DNA of 11,304 bases from a virus, in the IMG/VR virus record IMGVR_UViG_3300000035_000055, positions 1 through 11,304 of that record. One strand, written 5' to 3'. The translations under genes were made by a program, and so were the position numbers. The notes beneath the pieces were generated by a model. The model had not been told where the DNA came from and ran no database searches. It worked only from the letters and a program-made list of their open reading frames with translations. Shown here one piece after another: positions 1 through 11,304 of this stretch; the first letter of the stretch is position 1; each line of letters opens with the position of its first letter.

Positions 1-50
1 TTTAAGTAGTTCATCAGATATAAAAAAGCGTCTTAAAACGGCTGTATGAC
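1..50. repeat. Left inverted terminal repeat (50 bp, perfect)
   Basis: Bases 1-50 (tttaagtagttcatcagatataaaaaagcgtcttaaaacggctgtatgac) are the exact reverse complement of 11255-11304. Identity stops at base 51 (t versus g). The 5' end begins with TTT. Confidence 0.97.
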
Positions 51-54
51 TATT

Positions 55-103
55 TAAAATAAAAGTCGGTCGAAATGTGCGAGGGACACACACCCGACCG
101 ACC
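55..103 (-). terminator. Rho-independent terminator closing the minus-strand transcription unit
   Basis: In the minus-sense RNA, GUCGGUCG (revcomp of 95-102) pairs with CGACCGAC (revcomp of 65-72). An inner UGUGUG/CGCACA helix needs a U-G wobble that exists only in the minus sense. The stem is followed by UUUUAUUUU (revcomp of 56-64). It lies about 50 nt downstream of the last stop codon at 154. Confidence 0.75.
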
Positions 104-153
104 GAATAGTACGACTTTAACGTCTGTACAACGATATAATATTAACGCACAAT

Positions 154-630
154 TTACTGTTTTATTTTGCGTCTGACACGTTTTTGTGTCGGCTGTGGTG
201 TAACTATACCTTCATAACGCAAAACCGTCTTATACGGCAAATTACAGTATGATTTTGACGTTGCCACACGTCTGCCGTTATCGTACCCGACACCTAACAG
301 ATGACCGACTGACATATAAATACTAACATCTCTATGTGGCGTTATCAGTATATCACCCGACATAAGACCTTCACCCGTTGCAAGGTTCACACGTCTTGTC
401 ACGTCTTTAAAACCTGCTTTAATCAGTGCGCCCGTAAGATTACCCGTATAACTTGCCCCGTACTGACGTACACTGATACCTGCTTTTTCTATGACATATA
501 TGACAAGTGATGCAGCGTCAAAGTACGATGTATCATTCAGAACATCTTGTATGTCCTTGCTATCTTCACATATTCGCATCATCTCTGATGCAAATATACC
601 CGATTGTCTATTAACTGTTTTCTTCAACAT
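154..630 (-). CDS. Last gene; possible papain-fold (NlpC/P60 or Amidase_5-like) cell-wall hydrolase or endolysin candidate, function uncertain
   Basis: The ORF-track start at 636 is GTG; the first ATG is at 630, preceded by AAGGGTG. YFDAASLVIYVIEKAGI followed by SGDILITPH resembles the D-C-S-x-hydrophobic ... GD-hydrophobic ... H layout of papain-like peptidoglycan amidases. Ala sits where the nucleophile Cys is expected. The gene overlaps the end of the upstream gene by 20 nt. Confidence 0.45.
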   Translation of the reverse strand: MLKKTVNRQSGIFASEMMRICEDSKDIQDVLNDTSYFDAASLVIYVIEKAGISVRQYGASYTGNLTGALIKAGFKDVTRRVNLATGEGLMSGDILITPHRDVSIYMSVGHLLGVGYDNGRRVATSKSYCNLPYKTVLRYEGIVTPQPTQKRVRRKIKQ

Positions 631-2512
631 AAACACCCTTATTTAAAAGTTCATAAATCATGTCTTTTTCATTTGTTGTCATTTGGTCATCTGATATGTC
701 GGTGACTTCTGTGAACACTGAATAACCGATTTTCTGCCCGATGACAACCCGTTCACATTCGTTGTTATACTGCTTGTTGTTCTTTGACTGATACCAACGA
801 ATATAAACATACGGTGTCAGTCCGTACAATATTTTGCTTTCAAACTGCTTTTTGCCTATATATTCAGTACCGTCACCCGTTCTGTATATGACATCTTGTT
901 TCACGTCACATTCATACAGTGCGAACACTATACCGTCAGTCATCAGTTTGGCAACACCTTCACCCGTGACAATATTCACGTCATATTGTAGGTTAATTGT
1001 CCTGCCCGTCAGTTTGCTGTCTAGTTGTTGCAGTCCTACAAACGGCAAGAATATTGTTATTTCCGTCTGATAGTCCGTGATGTTCTGATTGTGTGTCGGT
1101 ATCACGATGTCACCGAAATTCAGATTGATATATGTGTTAATCGGTGTCGATGCAGATATACCTGTGTCGTAAGTCGCACACCGAATGTTGCTTGCTATCG
1201 TGTCACCTATCTTGCAGAACACACGGTGAATTCTGTCGACATAATCACCTAAGTCAATGTTCCAAACGAAATAAGTGCTGCTCTCAGTCTTGAAACGTTT
1301 ACTTGCAAATTCTTTTAGGTTGTCGACAGTAACATTGTACACATTGATTGAACCGTACTTGTCAATATATTCGGTTGTAGGTGCTGCCGTACCTATAAGT
1401 TCGATTACAAGTTTACTCGTCAGTACCGAACAGTCGAACTTTATAGACGCTGTCTGCTTGTCATCAGACACTGTGAACGAATGTTCTATTTCACCGCCAT
1501 ATTCGTCTTGATACGTCAGTTTTGGTGTATCTTGAAAACTGTAATTTTCATTAGCGGTCAGCGTGATATTGACCATGTCAGATGTCGTAAACGGTGACGG
1601 TGAATGACTGCCCACCGCATTGGTAACATTGTTGTTAAGCGTAACTATATTCTTATACGCTGTCGCACTGCCCGAAAATTCTATACCTTTATCGGTGTCT
1701 ATGTCGTAAGACGATAAGTCGACAGTAAGTGTTGCGGTTGTCCCGTCATCTGTAATTGTCATCGTCACTTCATGAACTTCACCTTCACTGTCGGTGTATG
1801 ACATATAAGGTGCTGACACGAAAGTATAATTTTCGTTTGCGGTACACGTTATATCTAGCGTGTCCGTTGTCAGTGCGCTTTCGGGTATGCCGTATGTGGC
1901 ACAGTTTTCTATGTCGTTTGTTATAGCGACTGCCGAACCTATTATTTCGGCTGCTGCCGTTATCAAGATACCCTTATCAGATGTAAGGGTAAGTGTCGAT
2001 AAGTCAATATTGACAGTTGCTGACTGCTTGTCATCAGATACCGTAAAGTCGATATACCGCTTAACACCGTCACCGTCATAATATATGATGTTCGGCACGT
2101 CACCGCTGAACTGATAATTGTCACTGGCTGTCAGCGTGACCGCAAGTGTTTCATCTGACTTGATTGTTTCGGGTGCGTCAGACGTACACCCGACCAAATC
2201 AGTTGTAACCGTTATTGTTTCGGCTGACGCATCGGCTGTCACGCTGCCCGTCAGATAGGCAGTCACTTTTTTGCTGCCCATGTCCGAAATAGTAATTGTG
2301 AAAGTTGCTGTTTTTCCGTCATCACTTAAAACGGCTGTTTCAGTATATTCGTCACCGAATGAACCTTGATATTCGAATTTCGGCGCGTCTGTGAACTTGT
2401 ACCCGTCATTAGCCGTGACCGTACCCGTGAACTGTTCACGTTTGGTCACTTCATCGGGAAAACTCGCTGTCGTGTTCGCTATGTTGTTTGTTAAATTCAG
2501 TGTTACCGCCAT
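611..2512 (-). CDS. Large tail protein: four tandem ~95-aa beta-rich repeats plus a ~250-aa C-terminal domain (tail knob or receptor-binding candidate)
   Basis: ATG at 2512 is preceded by AAAGGTGA. At 633 aa it is the largest structural ORF and lies in the late module after the capsid gene. The C-terminal segment ITIFLPFVGLQQLDSKLTGRTINLQYDVNIVTGEG recalls the [24 protein letters not shown] region of the phi29 gp9 tail knob (recalled, weak). Confidence 0.6.
   Translation of the reverse strand: MAVTLNLTNNIANTTASFPDEVTKREQFTGTVTANDGYKFTDAPKFEYQGSFGDEYTETAVLSDDGKTATFTITISDMGSKKVTAYLTGSVTADASAETITVTTDLVGCTSDAPETIKSDETLAVTLTASDNYQFSGDVPNIIYYDGDGVKRYIDFTVSDDKQSATVNIDLSTLTLTSDKGILITAAAEIIGSAVAITNDIENCATYGIPESALTTDTLDITCTANENYTFVSAPYMSYTDSEGEVHEVTMTITDDGTTATLTVDLSSYDIDTDKGIEFSGSATAYKNIVTLNNNVTNAVGSHSPSPFTTSDMVNITLTANENYSFQDTPKLTYQDEYGGEIEHSFTVSDDKQTASIKFDCSVLTSKLVIELIGTAAPTTEYIDKYGSINVYNVTVDNLKEFASKRFKTESSTYFVWNIDLGDYVDRIHRVFCKIGDTIASNIRCATYDTGISASTPINTYINLNFGDIVIPTHNQNITDYQTEITIFLPFVGLQQLDSKLTGRTINLQYDVNIVTGEGVAKLMTDGIVFALYECDVKQDVIYRTGDGTEYIGKKQFESKILYGLTPYVYIRWYQSKNNKQYNNECERVVIGQKIGYSVFTEVTDISDDQMTTNEKDMIYELLNKGVYVEENS
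1379..2509 (-). repeat. Four tandem in-frame coding repeats (~95 aa each) in the N-terminal 60% of the 633-aa tail protein
   Basis: Approximate repeat units are aa 2-98, 99-193, 194-288 and 289-378. They share the pattern (L/I)T(A/C)(S/T)(A/D)N(E/D)NY-F ... P ... Y ... G ... FT(V/I)(S/T)DD(G/K)(K/Q)(T/S)A ... D(L/C)S. Units 2 and 4 keep a 15-nt exact core, ctgcttgtcatcaga, at 2024-2038 and 1454-1468. Confidence 0.85.
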
Positions 2513-2514
2513 AT

Positions 2515-2955
2515 TCAGTCACCTTTGATTGTTACCATAATAAGTTCACCTTCCTTGTCGAACTGCTGTTTAGGAAATGTCAGTTTTTCAAAGTTCGGCT
2601 GAACGTTGTAAATATCTTCCCTTGATGATATGTACTTGTCGGCACTGTCACTGCTTGATACGGTAGCGGTTGCCGTAAGTATCTTGTCACGGTATGTCAT
2701 CAGAACGTCAACCGACAGTGTCAGTTCATACGTCTTGTTTTCTAGCACCCGAAAACTGTCTACGAAATAATATCTGTTCAGTTCTTCAATGTACAGATAC
2801 GAATATGTAAATATATTGTCCCACCGTATAATGACTGTCGGTTTTACGATGTCGAACCCGTCACGGATAAGACCTTTGACACTGACACCGTCTGTCAGCG
2901 TCTTATTGATTATGTCCTTTCGGTTGTTGTAATTGTAAAGTGTTATATGTACCAT
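2515..2955 (-). CDS. Small tail protein, possibly equivalent to the N-terminal domain of a phi29 gp9-type tail knob
   Basis: The ORF-track start at 2961 is TTG; the first ATG is at 2955 (MVHITLY...). YSYLYIEELNRYYFVDSFRVLENKTYELTLSVDVLMTYRDKI resembles phi29 gp9 [47 protein letters not shown] (recalled). The stop at 2515 is 2 nt from the next ATG. Confidence 0.5.
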   Translation of the reverse strand: MVHITLYNYNNRKDIINKTLTDGVSVKGLIRDGFDIVKPTVIIRWDNIFTYSYLYIEELNRYYFVDSFRVLENKTYELTLSVDVLMTYRDKILTATATVSSSDSADKYISSREDIYNVQPNFEKLTFPKQQFDKEGELIMVTIKGD

Positions 2956-2974
2956 GACCAACTTATATTAAACA

Positions 2975-3025
2975 GTGCCGTGCCTGCTGCTATTATGGAG
3001 AAAAACAGTTATTCAGACACGGCAC
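2975..3025 (-). promoter_or_regulatory. Strong stem-loop in the 173-nt non-coding gap after the capsid gene (attenuator, RNA-stability element or part of a structured ncRNA)
   Basis: In the minus-sense RNA, GUGCCGUGUCUG pairs with CAGGCACGGCAC: 12 bp including one U-G wobble that would be a C-A mismatch in the plus sense. The loop is 27 nt and is followed by UGUUUAAUAU. No ORF fits the 2962-3134 gap on either strand. Confidence 0.55.
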
Positions 3026-3134
3026 ATAAGAATGAAAGCACGCCCGTAAAGACACCGATGAACACCGTCAAGTAAGGTTATGAGCCTTAAAACGTATGTA
3101 CAACACGGCTGCCGTCAGACGTTAGTTATACATA

Positions 3135-4295
3135 TTATGCTATGAAGAACAGCACGAAATTTTCATTTGTGTCGTTGAAGAACGAACAGTCAAATTTAAA
3201 GTAGTTGTTGAAAAACTCTGCTTTCGCATTGTAGTTGGTCGTAACTCGCTTGTCGCTGTTCGTAACACCTAAACTGTCACGGTCGAACATCACACCGATG
3301 ACACCCGATATTTCGATGTCAGTACCGCTTGCAGACTTGACATTGATTTTGCTACATTCGTCAAAACTGTACTTCAACCCACTTGCTTGCCAACAAGGTA
3401 CTGTTTCACATTTAGGCAGCACCACTTCTGACTTGTTGTAAGTGTCGCTGTACAGATATGTCCCTGCTGCTTTCGCAAAATCTGTCAGCAGTACGGTATG
3501 CAGCATGTCGGCACTTGTAAAACGTTCTTTACCGCCAACGTTGAACAGTGTGGATATGCTAGCCAAACGGTCACTGTACATACCCATGATATAAGACGCA
3601 TAACGTATGAATTCGGGGTTAAGAACCGCTTGTTCTGCTGTCAGCGTTGTGCCGAATTTCTGATTGTACATGTACAAAAGGTTCACGCATCTGTTTGTGC
3701 TGCCCTTCGAATAGTCACCGCCAAATGTGTCAGCGTCTGCAATAAGTGTTTCAGCGACCATGTTGTTAATAGTACGCATGATAAGTGCGTCTGTCTTGAT
3801 AGTCATCGACTTGTCGACAGCGTTGTAAATCATCGAATAAAAGCCGTTAAGTTGTTCTGCGTTGTCAAAACTTTCTTTCACTTGACGTTCTGTCACGCTT
3901 ACGGGTACTTCGAAAGTCACCTTGCTGTTAAAGAATTTGGCACTTACTGTCGGTTTATAGAATACGTCTTGTTTGTATTCTTTGCCGTTCTCCAAATTCC
4001 ATGTGTCATTTTCCTGTGCTTCGGGTATGTCGCACTGTATCTTTTCAAGTACGCTACCGAATTCCCAACTGTCCATAAGAACAGACGGTACTTTACCCGT
4101 GTATGGTCGGTTGACGAATACAACCTTACCAATATGGTCAACTAATGACTTGACATAATTGTCAACTTGATTTGCGTTAAAAATCTCTGTACCCAAATCT
4201 ACAACACCGCTCAAATCTTCTGCAACGATGTCGCTTTTTCCTAAAACTTCGTTAGAAATAGAATTAACTATCTCATAAATTTGTTTTACTTCCAT
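3135..4295 (-). CDS. Major capsid protein, phi29 gp8-like (HK97 fold), without a C-terminal Ig-like decoration domain
   Basis: The ORF-track start at 4304 is TTG; the first ATG is at 4295 (MEVKQIY...). [23 protein letters not shown] matches phi29 gp8 [38 protein letters not shown] matches [28 protein letters not shown] matches [32 protein letters not shown] matches NYYLHVWQTLSASRFANAVAF. All phi29 sequences are recalled. Confidence 0.85.
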   Translation of the reverse strand: [386 protein letters not shown]

Positions 4296-4313
4296 AATAT
4301 CCAAATTAAAATG

Positions 4314-4901
4314 TTAATAAATGTCTGTACAAATATCTTCTATGATGTCGGACAACATCTGACGTTGCAGATTGAACAGTCTGACTTTCAGTTCAGCGTC
4401 TATGTTCTTCAACACTTCCGAACCGTCACCCGTAATTGTTCTGACATTTGTCAGTTCATTGTATGTTTCGGTTCTGTCGTTGTTACCGACTGTTTCATGT
4501 CTTTCACGCTGACTGAATTCATCTTCGTTGAACGCCTTGTTGCTGTCCGTGTCCGTTTGGTCACTGTCGCTGACTGCCGTGATGCTGCCCGTCTTAACGT
4601 CAACTATCTTCTGCCCGTCAGATATACCATATTCGGCATACAGTGCGTCATGCAGTTTTTTCCATGACTGCAAGTGAGTATATACGACAGCAGTTATGAA
4701 TGTGACATAATTGTCTGCCGTAAGATAATCAAGCAAAGTACGGTTACCATACAGCCCGACTGCTAGACTGTCCATACTCTGCCGTGTCTGACCCGTGAAC
4801 AGTTCACTGAATTCATCAGCGAGCGTGCTAACTGTCCCGTCATCAGAAAATACAGTTTGGAACAGTCCGTTTTCCGATGTGAATAATTCCTTGTACTTCA
4901 T
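4314..4901 (-). CDS. Hypothetical assembly or structural protein between portal and capsid genes (scaffold or head-tail adaptor/lower-collar candidate by position only)
   Basis: 195 aa. Its ATG overlaps the portal stop (ATGA at 4898-4901), suggesting translational coupling. It ends 10 nt before the TTG codon at 4304 and 18 nt before the preferred capsid ATG at 4295. No motif was recognised. Confidence 0.7.
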   Translation of the reverse strand: MKYKELFTSENGLFQTVFSDDGTVSTLADEFSELFTGQTRQSMDSLAVGLYGNRTLLDYLTADNYVTFITAVVYTHLQSWKKLHDALYAEYGISDGQKIVDVKTGSITAVSDSDQTDTDSNKAFNEDEFSQRERHETVGNNDRTETYNELTNVRTITGDGSEVLKNIDAELKVRLFNLQRQMLSDIIEDICTDIY

Positions 4902-6109
4902 GCCCTTACTGTTTCTAGTTCGTCTTTATGTCTATCAGAATTTGTCCGTTCCGTTGTTTCGTCTGTATCTTGTAATAGGACATCGTTCTGTTTTTCGTCA
5001 TCTGTACCGTATGAAGGGGTGTCGCTGCTTTCGTCATCATCTGTCCCGTCATCGTCTGTGTCGGTGTCTGTTTCGTCATCAGACGTGATTGTTTCTTCAT
5101 CGTCATTCGTGTCGGCTGCTGTTTCACCGTCACCGTCTGTCGTGTCGGCTGCTGTTTCGTCTGATATACTTGTATCACTTGTTTCATCTTCCTTTATATT
5201 TTCTTCTGTCATCTCCCCGTCTGTCGGTGTGTCCGTTGTTTCAATAATCTTGTCGTTATTTTCTTTTTCAGTTTTCCACGCACTGTTAAGGTCAACCGTT
5301 ATGTCAGTGCCGAACATATCATTGATTTTCTTTATAGCACCTATTCGCTGACGTAACATATCATCTACAAACGGCAAAAGTGCGTCAACGTTAGCAGCGA
5401 CTTCACCCGTATTCAAGCGTTCACGTTTCATGTTGAAATTAGCGTTCAAACCCAATTCGTTCAGTAGGTTCGCTTTGAAATACTGCTGCAATTCGATAAG
5501 TTGTGCAATATACTGACTGTTCGTTGTCGGTGCTGACTGCATCTTGACACCTTCGAAAAAAGCGTTGTTTCCTATGACAGAAAAATCACCTTCTTTTATC
5601 TTCTTCAAGAATTCATCTGCCGACTGTTTCGTCTTGTCATCGCTAGCCGAAATAAGCATTGTTATTCGTGAAAGTATCGCTGCCGTGTCAAGCGAAATTG
5701 TGCTGTCTGTCAGCAACACCGCATACTTACCTATAAGCGGTAACAGTCCGTTCATCTCATAATCGTTACGACATAATACACCGTCTTGTCTGATGTCGAA
5801 CTGTTTGTATAGGTTTAGTGCCACATTAGCGACTGTGTACACGGTAGGTCTGCCGTATTCATCGGGTTGACCGCCCAACGTACCCGAAAGCGCAATTATC
5901 TGTCCTTCGACATCGGTGACGAAACAGTGACCGTCAGTCTGTAACAGATGTTCGAATTCTTCCTGCGGTAGACTGTCGGGCAGTCCTTCATATCTGAATA
6001 TAGACTGTGTCTGACACAGTGTATAAGATATTATGTGACCTACCGACTTGTCCTTGTTCTTGAACAGTGACTGAAAGTAACTGTAATTTATATCTTTACT
6101 TTTTGACAT
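4898..6109 (-). CDS. Portal (connector/upper collar) protein, phi29 gp10-like, with a ~120-aa hyper-acidic C-terminal extension
   Basis: [20 protein letters not shown] matches phi29 gp10 [43 protein letters not shown] matches [50 protein letters not shown] matches [26 protein letters not shown]. Roughly aa 1-280 covers the 309-aa phi29 protein; the remainder is D/E/T-rich. Confidence 0.88.
   Translation of the reverse strand: [403 protein letters not shown]
5107..5158 (-). repeat. 19-nt exact direct repeat inside the portal acidic tail
   Basis: tcgtgtcggctgctgtttc occurs at 5107-5125 and again at 5140-5158. The 33-nt (11-codon) spacing encodes the duplicated peptide ETAADT. Confidence 0.9.
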
Positions 6110-6125
6110 ATTGTTAATTTTGGTG

Positions 6126-6133
6126 CAAATATA
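6126..6133 (-). promoter_or_regulatory. Candidate Bacteroidota-type -7 promoter element (TATATTTG) for the late/morphogenesis genes
   Basis: Plus-strand caaatata is TATATTTG on the minus strand, matching the TAnnTTTG consensus. It lies in the AT-rich 71-nt gap between the ATPase stop (6181) and the portal ATG (6109), about 17 nt upstream of that ATG. No clear -33 TTTG was seen. Confidence 0.5.
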
Positions 6134-6180
6134 ATATATATTTTATTACATTGTTTAAATATTGTGTTAATTTAAGTTAA

Positions 6181-7311
6181 TCACTTACCATGCAGTATGT
6201 TAGACTTTGCCGATGTCAATATGTAATTACGCACGATTTCACCAATTTCGTTGCTTTGATAGAACACCTTGTCTTTGGCAAAATAAGCACTGATTTTTCG
6301 GTCTATTTCGGTAGCGGTAGAAATTAACCGTCTATGATAATTAGGTCTGCCGTTCATGTCTAGCGTATAAATAAGTGAACCTTCCGTGTCTTTTATCGGT
6401 GTCGTTTTTGAGTGAATGTAAATAAAATTATCCGTGTCCGTCATAATCACGTTACCTTGCAACGTCACGTCTGAAAACACGATGTAGAAAATGAACTGTA
6501 CGTCACACGGTTTATATTTCACTGGCAAGTGTGGATAAACAGCCAATTCCCACTTACCGCCCGTTATCATCTGTAAGTTCTCATTATCGAAACAGAAATA
6601 CTTGTTCGATTTCTTTTGATGTTCGGTGCTGCTGCAATATTCAACTGCGACTGTCGCACCTGCGTCACCGAACTTATAGATGTCAATACTGCCCTGCTGC
6701 ATACGCTGTACACCCGTAAGTCCCATCTCTGCGAAATAAGGACAGTATTTGTTAACGGTGTTACCTAACATAAACACCTTGACATCGTCACGCTGTCTTA
6801 TTATTGTAGACAGCAGGTTCATGAACAACATAAATTCATCGGGTAGGTAATAACGTCTTGTCAAGAATTCATCAAATACGATAGTAGTGACATTAGGATA
6901 AGATGTCGATTTCTCATGTTCTTGTTCACTTAGACAGAACCCGTAACAGAACGGTGTTAAGTCGGGCACACGCTTACCCGTTTCACTGTCGAATGATGAC
7001 AAGAACCACTTGCCCGACAGATAGAACACTTCATTGAACTTACCGTCAGTCAGTGACGTGATAAGCCCGTTTTCGACTATACCCGAAAACAGCGTGTCGG
7101 CACGCTTGCCCCGTAAATCTTCACGCCACCTTCTGACGTAACACATCTGCTTGCCCGTTTTAAGATACTGTTTGATACCGTACAGTAATAGGGCGTATGT
7201 CTTGCCGTTTGAACGTTCACCGAAAATGACGTTATAGTCAGCGTGTTTCGCTAGTATGCTTGTAAGCGAATAATAACGGTTCTTTACTTCTTTTACCTTT
7301 ACTTGTTTCAT
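6181..7311 (-). CDS. DNA packaging (encapsidation) ATPase, phi29 gp16-like
   Basis: YNVIFGERSNGKTYA (Walker A) matches phi29 gp16 LNFVIGARGIGKSYA. CYVRRWREDL matches IYVRRYKPEL. EKSTSYPNVTTIVFDEFL (Walker B) matches EKSNAYPNVSTIVFDEFI. FMLGNTVNKYCPYF matches ICLSNAVSVVNPYF. Its ATG overlaps the polymerase stop (ATGA at 7308-7311). Confidence 0.92.
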   Translation of the reverse strand: MKQVKVKEVKNRYYSLTSILAKHADYNVIFGERSNGKTYALLLYGIKQYLKTGKQMCYVRRWREDLRGKRADTLFSGIVENGLITSLTDGKFNEVFYLSGKWFLSSFDSETGKRVPDLTPFCYGFCLSEQEHEKSTSYPNVTTIVFDEFLTRRYYLPDEFMLFMNLLSTIIRQRDDVKVFMLGNTVNKYCPYFAEMGLTGVQRMQQGSIDIYKFGDAGATVAVEYCSSTEHQKKSNKYFCFDNENLQMITGGKWELAVYPHLPVKYKPCDVQFIFYIVFSDVTLQGNVIMTDTDNFIYIHSKTTPIKDTEGSLIYTLDMNGRPNYHRRLISTATEIDRKISAYFAKDKVFYQSNEIGEIVRNYILTSAKSNILHGK

Positions 7312-9521
7312 AATTCTTTAAATTTAATACCCCGTAAATAATTCAGATATATCACCGACAGTGACAGTGTGTACGCTGTCGGTTCAAGGTGTACGCCCGA
7401 CAGTTCACTGAACTCTGACGTGTTACCTAAATAGTCAGTCAGACACCCCGTGACGGGATAGTCGACATAAGTGTGTATATTCTTGCCCGTTGCCGTTGCA
7501 GGAATGTCAAGATAATTCGTGAAAGCGTCAAAAATACCTTCGTCACCGTACTTATCCAAAAGATACGGTATCGCTGAACGCTTGTTCACACCCGACACCG
7601 TCAGTGAATAGTCATAATCAGTCTGACCGACAGTAAGTGCGTTTTCTTCTTCGACCATGTATCGTTTTGCACCTAACGTCTTGAACCTTCTGTACACACC
7701 TTCAAAATCCCACACACCCAACATCTTCGTCACACCCTTTATCGTTTTAGGAGAACACAGCGAAAAATCTATACCGTGATACTTGCACGCTTTTTTAAGT
7801 TTTGTTTCGACAAGATGGTTATAAGCGTCAAAATAGTCAGCGTGTTTTTCGTAATTCAAAATCTTGATACTGTCGGTATCTGAATATATGTAGTCACCCT
7901 TACATTCAAGTATGCCCGTGAACAAATTGCGTCTTGCATAAGCAGTCACGAATATGCCCCAACCGTAAAACAAAAAGCGATTGCGTGACTGATTATAAGA
8001 CATAAGCAGTTCTTCTTTCATGTCGGCTGTGACCTGCTGCGTGTCCCATACACCGTTGTATGTGAATTCTTCACGCAACGGGTTCGTGACCGTCATGCCG
8101 TAACATGAATTCAGCATTTCTTTGCTGTTAAGGTATTCTGTTTCCTTGCCTTTGACACCTTTCAAGGTAGTCTTTTTCTCATACAGATGTAATATCGATT
8201 TTACGAATTCTGTCGGCAGATACTGTTTTTCATATATCCACATTTGCCCGACTTTCAGATTACCCCAACTGTACAGACGTTTGATAATATCATAATCAAT
8301 GTTCGTTATCGTAAGACACACTTTTTCAGCAGCGACCAACCGCCCGTTATTTTCTGCCGTGTTGTGCTTTATCCAACATTTTGACACTGGTATATAGTTT
8401 TCAAAACTTTCACGGGCAAAGATGTCATCGAATTCAACGTCAAAGATGCAAAGGTACTTTTGCATGATGAACTGAAAATGTTTCATGCCTGCTACCTTCA
8501 CCCGTCTGCCCCGTGACATCGGGAATTGTTCTGCTATCATGACATACGGATAACTAGACGTAAAATCGTAACTTGCAACGTCTGTGACTGTAAGGTCGCT
8601 ATAATTAGCATTGGCGTGCGTGAACCCACCCATGAATGAACGCTGCATGATTTCGAATTCATCAAGTGACGTTATCTGTAAATCCTGCATCAGTTCGATA
8701 TAACGAAAGTTCTGCTGACGCTTGCCGTTTTCGTCACGTCTGAACAGACAGTTTTTGCGACAGTATTTGCGCACAAAACCCGTTTTTGTAAGCGGTATAT
8801 TGATTATATTCTTGTTATCTTCGATTTGCTGCTGTATGTACGCCATGACAACACGCACGTCATTGACACAGTACCCGATTTCCAATTCTGTAAGCGGTGT
8901 TTCGCTGTGGCGTAAAAGCGAGTAGTCCAAATCACCCGTCAGTTTGCTGACCTTGTATCGGTTAAGTTGTGAACCTAATTTTGCAAGCGAATACCCCGAC
9001 AAAAGATAAGAACATCTGAATTCTATAAAAGTGTCCGTAATTGCATAAATAGGTTTTCTTAAATCAATACTGAATACCTTATGCCACCCGAACAGTGAAC
9101 GTATGAACTGAAATTCGTATGACAGATTATGAACGTACACAATCAGATGTCGTTTTTCAGACAGTTCAAGTGCGTCAGCCATACGGTCACAGATATACAG
9201 AAATTCTTGCCATGTACGCCCGATTATTATATTACCGTTAATCCCGAATTGCCACACATACATGATACCTATTTTTTCGAATTTCGGTTTTTTGCCCGTC
9301 TTGTCAAATATTTCTTGTACTTGTTCGTATGTATATTGTCTACCGTCTAAATCACGGTAGAATGATGTTGTTTCGATGTCGAATGAACACGGTATATTGT
9401 AATAATATACACCTTTCGAATTGCCCCGTAAGTTCTTGTTGTTCACCGACAGTTTAAGAACTGTGTCGATGTCCTGCGGTCGGTATACATCACCGTGTTC
9501 GTTGAATTGTACTGCTTTCAT
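7308..9521 (-). CDS. Protein-primed family-B DNA polymerase (pPolB)
   Basis: Motifs found: ExoI SFDIETT (aa 46-52); ExoII HNLSYEFQF (131-139); ExoIII YCVND (217-221); motif A YDFTSSYPY (318-326); motif B KEMLNSCYG (467-475); motif C YSDTDS (546-551); KxY as GAKRY (617-621). Order and spacing match phi29 gp2, with extra length (737 versus 575 aa). Confidence 0.96.
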   Translation of the reverse strand: MKAVQFNEHGDVYRPQDIDTVLKLSVNNKNLRGNSKGVYYYNIPCSFDIETTSFYRDLDGRQYTYEQVQEIFDKTGKKPKFEKIGIMYVWQFGINGNIIIGRTWQEFLYICDRMADALELSEKRHLIVYVHNLSYEFQFIRSLFGWHKVFSIDLRKPIYAITDTFIEFRCSYLLSGYSLAKLGSQLNRYKVSKLTGDLDYSLLRHSETPLTELEIGYCVNDVRVVMAYIQQQIEDNKNIINIPLTKTGFVRKYCRKNCLFRRDENGKRQQNFRYIELMQDLQITSLDEFEIMQRSFMGGFTHANANYSDLTVTDVASYDFTSSYPYVMIAEQFPMSRGRRVKVAGMKHFQFIMQKYLCIFDVEFDDIFARESFENYIPVSKCWIKHNTAENNGRLVAAEKVCLTITNIDYDIIKRLYSWGNLKVGQMWIYEKQYLPTEFVKSILHLYEKKTTLKGVKGKETEYLNSKEMLNSCYGMTVTNPLREEFTYNGVWDTQQVTADMKEELLMSYNQSRNRFLFYGWGIFVTAYARRNLFTGILECKGDYIYSDTDSIKILNYEKHADYFDAYNHLVETKLKKACKYHGIDFSLCSPKTIKGVTKMLGVWDFEGVYRRFKTLGAKRYMVEEENALTVGQTDYDYSLTVSGVNKRSAIPYLLDKYGDEGIFDAFTNYLDIPATATGKNIHTYVDYPVTGCLTDYLGNTSEFSELSGVHLEPTAYTLSLSVIYLNYLRGIKFKEL

Positions 9522-9555
9522 TCTTATAATTGTATTTATTTAGATTATATGCTGC

Positions 9556-10185
9556 TTATAACATATCTTTAAGTTCATCATATATCCTGCGAACATTTTC
9601 TGTCATCTCGCTTGCTGCATCGTCTGCCTGGTGTTCGATGTCTTGTTGCAGTGCTTTCGAAAGTTGTTCAGCGTCACTTTCGATTTGGTCGCTTATGTCC
9701 TGTGCTGCCCGTTCAAGTTCACCCGAAAAATCCTTATAACGCATCAGATACTGTTCGACATATTCAGACGATTTTATACTGTCCAACTTACCCGACATAT
9801 AGTCAATCATGTCACTGTATTCTTGTTTCGTTAGGTCGTAACTTGTTCTGATATGTTCGTTGTACTGTCTTGCACCGCTTGCCATAGATGTCGGCTGTTT
9901 CAAGAACTGTACCGCTTTCGCATAATCTATCTTTAAATCTTTCCATGACTTACCACCGACAGAAAACTTGCTGTAACGGTCACTGTCAAGATGCAGTGAC
10001 TTAACAGCAGGAGAATATATCCCTGCTTTTTCAATGTTCTGAATTCGTCTGTTCGCTATCTGAAATACACGCTTGATTTCATCTTTCATGTCCTTGCTGC
10101 TTTCGGCAGCGTTCAGAATATCAGTGCGAAAGTCATTTTTCAGACGCTGAAACAGACTGTCAGAATAATTTATCTTACCTTTCAT
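9556..10185 (-). CDS. Candidate terminal (priming) protein, assigned by position only
   Basis: This 209-aa ORF lies immediately upstream of the pPolB gene, as gp3 does in phi29. It has a basic N-terminal half and an acidic, helical-looking C-terminal third. A genome with ITRs and a pPolB requires a terminal protein. No sequence-level similarity was recognised. Confidence 0.45.
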   Translation of the reverse strand: MKGKINYSDSLFQRLKNDFRTDILNAAESSKDMKDEIKRVFQIANRRIQNIEKAGIYSPAVKSLHLDSDRYSKFSVGGKSWKDLKIDYAKAVQFLKQPTSMASGARQYNEHIRTSYDLTKQEYSDMIDYMSGKLDSIKSSEYVEQYLMRYKDFSGELERAAQDISDQIESDAEQLSKALQQDIEHQADDAASEMTENVRRIYDELKDML

Positions 10186-10201
10186 AATTTACCTTTGCTT
10201 G

Positions 10202-10249
10202 AAAAAACGGGGTACAGTTGTAGCGTCATTTTCATACAACCATACCCCG
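10202..10249 (-). terminator. Rho-independent terminator between the early small ORFs and the replication genes
   Basis: In the minus-sense RNA, CGGGGUAUGGUUGU pairs with ACAACUGUACCCCG: 14 bp including two adjacent wobble pairs (U-G and G-U) that would be mismatches in the plus sense. The loop is 14 nt and is followed by UUUUUU (revcomp of 10202-10207). It starts 30 nt after the stop at 10279. Confidence 0.8.
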
Positions 10250-10278
10250 CAACTGATTAAACCTAAACAAATACTACA

Positions 10279-10650
10279 TTATAAGTCAACGAAATTGATA
10301 CCGTAACATTTGCGCCCGTGACTTTCGTACTCATAAATCGTATAACCGACTTTACCTTCACGGATAGCAGCGACAGCGTCAGCGTCATTCAAGATGTCAC
10401 GAACAGTGTCCGTCATGTGCGCTGGTATGTTAATTAGTTCTTTATGCTTGCTGTCGATGAACACGGGTGCTGTTTCGATTTTACCGTTGAAAATGAAACA
10501 CCCGTTAAAAGTGTGAATGTTGTCAGCACCGCCTCGCTTTTTGTCATTGTAGATGTTCGACAGTTTTGTGTACTCAAAACCCGTTGTGTCGATGTCGAAC
10601 TGTGCACCTTTATTGAACCTTGATGCAAAAGAAAAATTTTTCTGTTCCAT
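10279..10650 (-). CDS. Early protein of unknown function (ssDNA- or dsDNA-binding replication accessory candidate by position and size only)
   Basis: Clean 123-aa ORF with an ATG start, in line with the other genes. It occupies the position that SSB/DBP genes hold in phi29-like phages. No motif was recognised. Confidence 0.7.
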   Translation of the reverse strand: MEQKNFSFASRFNKGAQFDIDTTGFEYTKLSNIYNDKKRGGADNIHTFNGCFIFNGKIETAPVFIDSKHKELINIPAHMTDTVRDILNDADAVAAIREGKVGYTIYEYESHGRKCYGINFVDL

Positions 10651-10674
10651 GATTAAATAATTTATACGTTAATA

Positions 10675-10845
10675 CTATTTTGTGGGTTCGCTGCCGACTG
10701 ACAGCGAATTAACCCAAACTTTGAACCTATTTGCTTTAATAACCCAATTCGTATTCTTGCTGACTTCATCGTCTTGTATAAAAGCGTTCAAAGCACACAG
10801 CAAGTTGAACTGTACTTCATCGAAATTATTACGTTGTTCACCCAT
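10675..10845 (-). CDS. Small early ORF (56 aa) missing from the supplied ORF track
   Basis: Hand translation of the minus strand gives ATG at 10845: MGEQRNNFDEVQFNLLCALNAFIQDDEVSKNTNWVIKANRFKVWVNSLSVGSEPTK, with stop TAG at 10675-10677. It fills the only gap in an otherwise continuous minus-strand gene array, 11 nt after the upstream stop and 24 nt before the next ATG. Confidence 0.55.
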   Translation of the reverse strand: MGEQRNNFDEVQFNLLCALNAFIQDDEVSKNTNWVIKANRFKVWVNSLSVGSEPTK

Positions 10846-10856
10846 AATATCAAAAT

Positions 10857-11114
10857 TTAATGTGTACCAACAAGTTGGTGATTAAAATAATAACTGTTCA
10901 TGACTAGACGGTGTGTGAAATAACAATCGTCTAATACCTTCACATAACCTTTGCCGACTAGTTGTGACAGATAACCTTTAATCTGATTATCTGTAAGACC
11001 TAACATCTTATAGTCTGTTTCATCATAGCAAAAACACCCGTTTTCACCGTAACTGTTCGCATTTTCCACACATAGCGTGTAAATGATTTCTTCAATGTCT
11101 GTCAACTGTTTCAT
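10857..11114 (-). CDS. First early gene; possible small winged-helix DNA-binding protein
   Basis: 85-aa ORF with an ATG start, the first gene after the right-end promoter. LGLTDNQIKGYLSQLVGKGYVKVLDD resembles the recognition helix plus wing of wHTH regulators. This assignment is weak. Confidence 0.6.
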   Translation of the reverse strand: MKQLTDIEEIIYTLCVENANSYGENGCFCYDETDYKMLGLTDNQIKGYLSQLVGKGYVKVLDDCYFTHRLVMNSYYFNHQLVGTH

Positions 11115-11147
11115 AATATGTATCTATTTAAGTATAACTTTCGGTTG

Positions 11148-11155
11148 CAAATATA
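11148..11155 (-). promoter_or_regulatory. Candidate Bacteroidota-type -7 promoter element (TATATTTG) for the early genes
   Basis: Plus-strand caaatata is TATATTTG on the minus strand. It lies about 34 nt upstream of the first ATG (11114), inside the 140-nt non-coding stretch between the right ITR and the first gene. The octamer is identical to the one at 6126-6133. Confidence 0.55.
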
Positions 11156-11201
11156 CATCGTTTTCAGATAGGTTGTATCATTTATTGTGTTAAAAATATA
11201 A

Positions 11202-11220
11202 AAATAAAAAATTTTTATTT
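11202..11220. repeat. 19-bp all-A/T palindrome between the right ITR and the early promoter
   Basis: aaataaaaa-a-tttttattt has 9-nt perfect arms around a single central base. It sits in a longer A/T-only tract (about 11191-11220). Confidence 0.8.
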
Positions 11221-11254
11221 CTTTAACAAATAAATCTTACACACCGAAATACCC

Positions 11255-11304
11255 GTCATACAGCCGTTTTAAGACGCTTTTTTATATCTGATGAACTACT
11301 TAAA
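11255..11304. repeat. Right inverted terminal repeat (50 bp, perfect)
   Basis: Exact reverse complement of bases 1-50, ending at the last base of the window. Confidence 0.97.

Follow-up and report, generated by a model that had tools for sequence, protein, structure and literature searches.

Among the phages related to phi29, those of the Astrithrvirus type have been discussed at length as cluster 23 (PMC11476376), and in the NCBI taxonomy Astrithrvirus is a genus without a family. In Astrid, DU_PP_III and Phanie the tail knob is made from two genes and carries lateral immunoglobulin (Ig)-like domains (PMC11476376). Phanie cannot infect unless it is attached to the tail of a helper myophage (Pourcel et al. 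2024, cited in PMC11476376), and other members of the clade may behave like it (PMC11476376). In this context, we analyzed IMG/VR record IMGVR_UViG_3300000035_000055, a viral DNA of 11,304 nucleotides whose whole length is referred to here as the window. The window very probably covers nearly all of a phage genome of linear double-stranded DNA, 12,126 bp long, from gut-type metagenomes; the phage is an Astrithrvirus-type relative, and the outer 411 bp of each inverted terminal repeat (ITR) are missing.

The original prediction, made by a model from the sequence of the window, had described a complete linear replicon and a minimal, probably unclassified lineage of tailed phages. Its sequence observations and its phi29-type assignment are correct, whereas its completeness and size argument are refuted. 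The twelve genes that it counted (g01 to g12) are all present; their open reading frames (ORFs) occupy 93% of the window and lie without exception on the minus strand, to which all gene coordinates given below refer. A small, protein-primed tailed phage related to phi29 is likewise supported by the profiles of polymerase, capsid protein, connector and packaging ATPase; all four calls lie above the Pfam cut-offs, and the PHROG matches agree with them.

True ends of the genome

The window starts and ends with the perfect 50-bp repeat that had been claimed for it: its two 50-nt arms, at 1-50 and 11255-11304, show 100% complementarity and lie exactly at the termini. Looking up the exact protein products of the window in other assemblies led to contigs that extend further. 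Beyond window base 1, contig L003 (JGI 3300005279) continues for 39 nt and contig L087 (ENA ERZ27241762), which covers window positions 4053 to 1, for 411 nt. Beyond base 11304, contig L085 continues for 63 nt and contig L086 (ENA ERZ27241759), covering positions 10842 to 11304, again for 411 nt. All four contigs match the window at 100% identity, and the extensions of 411 nt prove to be inverted copies of one and the same sequence, ending at the same base. Together with the window, they add up to 12,126 bp, with a perfect ITR of 461 bp; the window represents bases 412-11,715 of this genome, with all 12 genes inside. The four identical contigs and the matching extensions identify the 50-bp repeat of the window as the innermost stump of the ITR. 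Positions 1-50 are thus the inner 50 bp of the left copy, which L087 and L003 continue outward, and positions 11255-11304 those of the right copy, continued by L086 and L085. Contigs extending beyond the repeats had been named beforehand as evidence against completeness; as they were found, with 411 bp missing from the window on each side, the proposal of a complete replicon falls. The argument from a size near the lower limit for tailed phages was built on the wrong length, the true genome measuring 12,126 bp.

The termini point in the same direction. The reconstructed genome end reads 5'-AAAGGTAC (in longer form, the ITR starts with 5'-AAAGGTACGC) and shares with the relatives of this phage the terminal layout AAAGGTAY...TTTTAAC.TTTCCC.AAC. 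The window's own ends (TTTAAGTAG) lack this family motif, which the reconstructed ends possess. Among the contigs of relatives, 17 ends begin exactly at AAAGGTA, and at 18 further ends an Illumina adapter is fused straight to AAAGGTA, showing that the DNA molecule ends there. In the IMG/VR records such adapter sequence is contamination, yet it is direct proof of where the DNA physically ends. A TruSeq adapter was left at both ends of the IMG/VR records L006, L011, L014, L022, L023, L042, L059, L060 and L069. The ITRs of related IMG/VR genomes range from 42 to 570 bp, and the genome end of phi29 is AAAGTA (PMC11476376).

Within the ITR (L086 1-461, outside the window) about eight TGTACC-containing units follow each other with 11-nt phasing, and AACGTGAAACA is present twice. 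These repeats, the AACGTGAAACA copies and the terminal layout could be origin or protein-binding sites. Exact-pattern scans for window and junction sequences gave no match in IMG/VR or JGI metagenome contigs. The unmatched patterns of the JGI scan include one of 37 nt that is contained in the JGI contig L003, obtained from another resource, so the two resources differ in their records.

Relatives and placement

A megablast search with the whole window found no near-identical genome among GenBank phages; a classified genome of that kind had been named as evidence against novelty. Protein searches (tblastn) matched a coherent set of isolates of 11.1-11.9 kb with 41-47% identity in the polymerase and 52-57% in the capsid protein. 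They comprise the Salmonella phages astrithr, assan and Astrid (Astrithrvirus), Acinetobacter phage Phanie, Pectobacterium phage DU_PP_III, Enterobacter phage Entb_47, Vibrio phage K58 g2 and a Shigella phage. The record of K58 g2 is incomplete, as it breaks off within the polymerase gene, and its 10.4 kb do not reflect the true genome size. With 12.1 kb, the reconstructed genome is slightly longer than the isolates. Their genes are arranged as small genes, putative terminal protein, polymerase, ATPase, connector, a protein of about 185 residues, capsid protein, a protein of about 146 residues, a large protein and a lysin. Eight of the 12 window genes (g04-g11) are common to the Astrithrvirus-type isolates and stand in the same order.

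Closer relatives come from metagenomes. IMG/VR contains at least 122 of them, with lengths of 10-13 kb and capsid identities of 68-76%, most originating from sample 3300045988, which is described as a human faecal co-assembly. The gene order from g02 to g11 is kept in 72 of the 82 loci compared. With the order and the eight core genes of Astrithrvirus-type phages and more than 120 closer metagenomic relatives, the lineage is not an isolated one.

Nucleotide similarity, as our own approximate one-way estimate based on BLASTN and not on VIRIDIC, amounts to about 30% for the nearest relative, 0.074 for astrithr and 0.077 for Phanie. These values fall far below the genus line of 70% nucleotide identity over the genome length, which places the phage outside the genus Astrithrvirus. 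It has the size of about 11-12 kb and the eight-gene order of the Astrithrvirus-like clade, as well as the linear genome with ITRs of the phi29-related podophages. Small opposite-strand genes at the far end, a clade feature seen in astrithr, Phanie, K58 g2, the Shigella phage and most IMG/VR relatives, are missing. Features of the Salasmaviridae are missing as well: there is no match to a prohead RNA (pRNA), and the 12 genes lie on one strand instead of in early and late operons that diverge. At genus level, this uncultivated phage is a new member of the phi29-related podophages of the Astrithrvirus type, a group already described and well populated in metagenomes.

Two other readings of the same DNA have to be weighed against a nearly whole genome of 12,126 bp. 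One takes the window for a complete 11,304-bp genome with a true 50-bp ITR and for an isolated minimal lineage, in keeping with a repeat that is perfect and exactly terminal, with the location of every gene inside the window and with the lack of a near match among GenBank phages. We regard it as very improbable, since four independent, identical contigs continue past both ends, the family terminal motif is absent from the window ends and present on the reconstructed ones, and many relatives are known. In addition, graph assembly that stops at a repeat branch would leave just such an equal stub of 50 nt at either end, and the window contig was probably cut at such a branch, on the inner side of the repeat. 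The other reading, a linear protein-primed plasmid or defective element that forms no particles, would account for the long ITR, the protein-primed polymerase, the very small size and the lack of evident lysis genes. Against it stand the intact set of head, portal, packaging ATPase and tail-knob genes, which is under selection in more than 100 relatives, and the virions formed by related isolates (PMC11476376), and we consider a plasmid or defective element extremely unlikely.

The corrected ends remove a false claim to the smallest complete tailed phage and illustrate a general pitfall: on a metagenomic contig, an inverted repeat that is short, perfect and exactly terminal can be all that is left of a far longer ITR. 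They also provide the physical ends (AAAGGTAY) for an 11-13 kb phi29-related clade, abundant in assemblies from human faeces, of which no member has been cultured.

Replication, packaging and the head

The protein-primed family B DNA polymerase g05 (737 residues, 7308-9521) matches PF03175 with 56 bits, at a cut-off of 25.8 (E-value 4.3e-15), and phrog_1907 (3e-71). The catalytic motifs ascribed to it in the original prediction were all located, namely ExoI FDIET, ExoII HNLSYE, ExoIII YCVND, motif A DFTSSYP, motif B KEMLNSCYG, motif C YSDTDS and the KxY motif as KRY. In ExoII (9116-9133, minus strand; polymerase residues 130-135) a Glu replaces the usual Asp, a replacement shared by astrithr and Phanie and by almost all of the metagenomic relatives examined. 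Directly upstream of the polymerase gene lies g04 (209 residues, 9556-10185), a putative terminal protein with phmmer matches to gp2 of Phanie (6.3e-11) and astrithr (1.6e-8), a type of protein that has been treated as the counterpart of p3 (PMC11476376). Two aspects weigh against this assignment: the g04 family profile gave no sequence match to the solved terminal protein of phi29, and the call draws on gene position and on homology to a Phanie protein that is itself uncharacterised.

The gp16-type DNA packaging ATPase g06 (376 residues, 6181-7311) matches PF05894 (9.4e-25, 88.2 bits) and phrog_2150 (3.5e-37). Its gene adjoins that of the polymerase, as had been pointed out, and overlaps its end by 4 nt. 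It is followed by the gp10-type connector, or portal, g07 (403 residues, 4898-6109), with matches to PF05352 (5.5e-15, 56 bits) and phrog_2038 (5e-41). The Phi29-type major capsid protein g09 (386 residues, 3135-4295) is identified by PF25622 Phi29_MCP (1.9e-51, 175.8 bits) and phrog_2006 (3e-31). Its start is the ATG rather than an upstream TTG, and the exact 386-residue product is recorded in other assemblies. Between connector and capsid genes lies g08 (195 residues, 4314-4901), a conserved protein of the virion module whose clade profile recovers gp7 of Phanie (2.3e-12) and of astrithr (2.1e-10). From its position, g08 is a putative lower collar or scaffold protein; its family profile found no match in the PDB.

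The C-terminal tail of the connector (4901-5242, minus strand), about 110 residues long, is acidic, with many Asp, Glu and Thr residues, and its coding DNA contains imperfect repeats (5034-5242). Among relatives, connector length varies from 317 to 425 residues.

This gene set and the terminal structure suggest protein priming and packaging of unit-length DNA. By analogy with phi29, replication would start at both ends, with polymerase g05 primed by the terminal protein g04, and the AAA end would permit slide-back initiation in the phi29 manner. The gp16-type ATPase would then drive DNA of unit length, capped by protein, through the connector to fill a small capsid of the Phi29 type.

A probable tail knob split over two genes

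The original prediction had reported no recognisable appendage or tail-fibre gene, lower collar, head fibre, holin or scaffold. The absence of a head fibre, a tail fibre or appendage and a holin candidate stands; the tail itself is recognisable and corresponds to a protein of 146 residues, g10, and one of 633 residues, g11. The smaller protein, g10 (2515-2955), matches gp9 of astrithr (1.4e-14) and Phanie (4.5e-14) in phmmer searches. In the PDB, its family profile finds 4eo2 (E-value 2.7e-4) and 8egs (0.033). The entry 4eo2 is the tail knob of phage C1, labelled as major tail protein, and the match falls in its N-terminal part. Judged by these profile matches, g10 appears to correspond to the N-terminal domain in the family of phi29 gp9 and C1 gp12 and to form the minor part of the split knob.

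The probable major part, g11 (611-2512), is a homologue of Phanie and Astrid gp10. Residues 1-378 (DNA 1379-2512) form four tandem Ig-like domains, encoded in a region of DNA repeats at 285-288 nt spacing, and residues 380-633 (DNA 614-1375) a conserved C-terminal domain. Aligned by hhalign with gp10 of Astrithrvirus-type isolates, g11 reaches a probability of 99.4% and an E-value of 1.1e-21. An AlphaFold2 model of the full protein has a mean predicted local distance difference test (pLDDT) score of 79, with the Ig-like domains modelled confidently. For g11, a Foldseek search of BFVD retrieves the Astrid protein A0A3G8F2C2 (E-value 2.6e-14). Among solved structures, Foldseek matches of the full model fall in the Ig domains and on generic Ig proteins only. 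Similarly, searches of solved structures with the single sequence and the family profile returned only chance matches or designed Ig domains. The C-terminal part matches Astrid-type proteins only and no solved knob by sequence or fold. Among relatives, the number of Ig domains in g11-type proteins varies widely, with lengths of 443-1023 residues, and homologues of g11 carry InlB B-repeat-type domains (PF18998).

The model of the C-terminal domain is only moderately confident (pLDDT 68), and on its own the domain gave no significant PDB match by sequence or fold, so that its published link to the C-terminal part of phi29 gp9 was not recovered. Taken together, homology indicates that the tail is encoded as a split knob by g10 and g11, homologous to the Phanie pair. 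The particle would then carry a tail stub built from this knob, consisting of g10 and of g11 with its four lateral Ig-like domains.

Lysis and entry

The last gene, g12 (154-630), encodes an NlpC/P60-like protein of 158 residues with an endolysin-like domain. It matches phrog_14030 (7e-13), and its score for PF25309 ELLD, 24.6 bits, stays below the cut-off of 27. Comparison with its only two database homologues reveals FDAASLVI in place of FDCSS(L/F)VI and D-x3-Y in place of H-x3-Y, that is, a catalytic Cys changed to Ala and a catalytic His changed to Asp. The g12 sequence is identical in several independent assemblies, so the loss of Cys and His is no sequencing error. Probably, g12 is inactive as a peptidase, or it is a structural protein of the tail tip. 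A segment of 12 residues common to both homologues is missing from g12. The protein has no counterpart in the isolates and is not conserved in the metagenomic clade.

Searches of the window proteins against Pfam and PHROG gave no match above threshold to families of appendage, head fibre, holin or endolysin. The window yielded no holin candidate; outside the known genes, no coding-strand ORF contains a membrane-spanning stretch, and almost every hydrophobic ORF is an antisense artefact. Past the g11 homologue, most relatives have a convergent cassette of opposite-strand genes, encoding proteins of about 82, 140, 64 and 108 residues (L093 11069-11699, L051 10549-11811, L072, L084 and others). 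In the metagenomic clade, the protein of about 140 residues resembles M15 peptidases. The window is without this cassette: all twelve genes are co-directional, and g12 occupies its place.

Helper dependence or autonomy

The best-studied relative is Phanie, whose gp9 and gp10 have homologues in the window. With no receptor-binding protein, no holin and no evidently active lysin encoded, the particle may need a helper in the way Phanie does, docking on the tail of a co-infecting phage and relying on it for entry and lysis; we give this possibility an even chance. Helper dependence has been shown for Phanie alone. Two points tell against dependence. The Salmonella phage Astrid is called non-satellite in a preprint (10.1101/2025.06.18.659913), and the Ig-like domains of g11 could themselves bind a receptor as adhesins.

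The same genome can also be read as that of an autonomous virulent podophage, in which the Ig domains of g11 form a receptor-binding collar and g12 or a small early protein serves entry or lysis. Ig-like domains bind carbohydrates in other phages (PMC11476376), and the InlB B-repeat-type domains of g11 homologues add to this, as do their variable Ig number and length, which are expected of host-range determinants; the non-satellite status reported for Astrid fits as well. An autonomous phage would have to do without a holin and with a lysin-like protein that lacks its catalytic residues, and Phanie, the closest studied relative, needs its helper (PMC11476376). The names of several isolates also hint, as a lead only, at second genomes in mixed lysates. 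On balance, autonomy is a realistic possibility to which we give a little under an even chance. The names and locus tags in question are those of OZ195715 (K58 g2), OX458330 (Aci01-2-Phanie), MF979562 (P9AB12kb) and OR845046-57 (multi-contig S.Ent 1-35-3). An origin of several isolates from mixed lysates would fit a helper dependence of the whole group.

A stronger version of dependence is conceivable and in our view rather unlikely. Here, the window phage and the gut clade would be obligate tail-borrowing satellites in anaerobic gut bacteria, possibly Bacteroidota. The window phage would be the member that has gone furthest, having shed the convergent lysis cassette and kept a dead lysin-like protein, and it would need a helper for both entry and exit. 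If the gut clade shared the dependence of Phanie, it would constitute an unrecognised class of satellites in the gut, and the window phage, in which no functional lysis gene is evident, would lend itself well to testing this. As leads, its corrected ends, co-directional layout and apparently inactive lysin-like gene have some value.

Early genes, non-coding elements and host

Three small genes precede the putative terminal protein gene. The first, g01 (85 residues, 10857-11114), has no match in the 82 related loci and is unique to this genome; a winged-helix hint is weak (E-value 0.2). The conserved early proteins g02 (56 residues, 10675-10845) and g03 (123 residues, 10279-10650) are present in 73 and 78 of the 82 loci, respectively, the latter with 46-58% identity. 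Searches of g01-g04 against Pfam gave nothing usable. No family match was found for g02, and g03 has no homologue in Pfam, in the PDB (family profile) or among isolates; counterparts in the isolates are lacking for g01, g02 and g03 alike. Between g03 and g04 lies a hairpin that resembles an intrinsic terminator (10201-10250, minus strand), with about 17 base pairs followed by U6, a minimum free energy (MFE) of -26.2 kcal/mol and a z-score of -2.8. By analogy with phi29, g01-g03 would form a short early unit closed by this terminator.

A second structured element is the non-coding spacer of 179 nt between the capsid gene and g10 (2956-3134, minus strand; MFE -52.3 kcal/mol, z-score -2.5). The corresponding spacer measures 58-78 nt in relatives, the one in the window being two to three times longer. 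Neither a pRNA nor any other Rfam family was found at E-values up to 1 in the window and the ITR-bearing contigs, and the window contains no tRNA genes.

Most genes lack a Shine-Dalgarno sequence. The 12-mer TATATTTGCAMC occurs twice, 40 nt before g01 (11148-11155, minus strand) and 24 nt before the connector gene (6126-6133, minus strand). TAnnTTTG is the -7 promoter motif of Bacteroidota, and TATATTTGCAMC fits it; a scan for sigma-70 promoters was uninformative. The scarcity of Shine-Dalgarno sites and the two TAnnTTTG elements are a weak hint at a Bacteroidota host. Binning does not add to this. Relatives placed in bins of metagenome-assembled genomes (MAGs), on small contigs from gut and rumen, carry inconsistent labels such as Staphylococcaceae, Phocaeicola, Christensenellaceae, Enterousia and others, and thus provide no host evidence. 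The two lysin homologues are too few to indicate a host.

Comparison with known systems

The most distant of the systems considered is phi29 (Salasmaviridae, 19.3 kb). It has the same type of polymerase, capsid protein, gp10 connector and gp16 ATPase as the window phage, and its ends begin with AAAG. Its 6-bp ITR, pRNA, divergent early and late operons and single-gene tail knob were not found in the window genome, and the same holds for its appendages, head fibre, scaffold, holin and endolysin.

Astrithrvirus (astrithr, assan and Astrid, 11.6-11.7 kb) and DU_PP_III are nearer. They share the core genes and their order, with the ATPase gene adjoining that of the polymerase, at 45-47% identity in the polymerase, 52-54% in the capsid protein and a nucleotide similarity of 7-8%. 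DU_PP_III has annotated terminal repeats of 219 bp, and astrithr has four opposite-strand genes at its right end; the hosts of these phages are enterobacterial. Similarly, Phanie (Aci01-2-Phanie, OX458330, 11,885 bp; host Acinetobacter) has the same eight core genes in the same order, a split knob with Ig-like domains, an ITR (199 bp) and no tail fibre, with identities to the window of 57.5% in the capsid protein and 46.9% in the polymerase. It differs in having six Ig-like domains compared with four (PMC11476376), in a gene 11 annotated as amidase, in a small gene between ATPase and connector and in two small opposite-strand genes at its right end. Homologues of g01-g03 and g12 are absent from Phanie.

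The closest counterparts are the IMG/VR genomes from gut and rumen (e.g. IMGVR_UViG_3300021400_002135 and those of 3300045988), together with records named 'Podoviridae sp. ct...'. The gut and rumen genomes differ from the window phage in the M15-type cassette after g11, in place of which the window has its unique g01 and g12. They agree with it in the size of 10-13 kb, the long ITRs with AAAGGTAY ends and the order g02, g03, terminal protein, polymerase, ATPase, connector, g08, capsid protein, g10 and g11, with identities of 68-76% in the capsid protein, about 74% in the ATPase and 63-68% in the polymerase.

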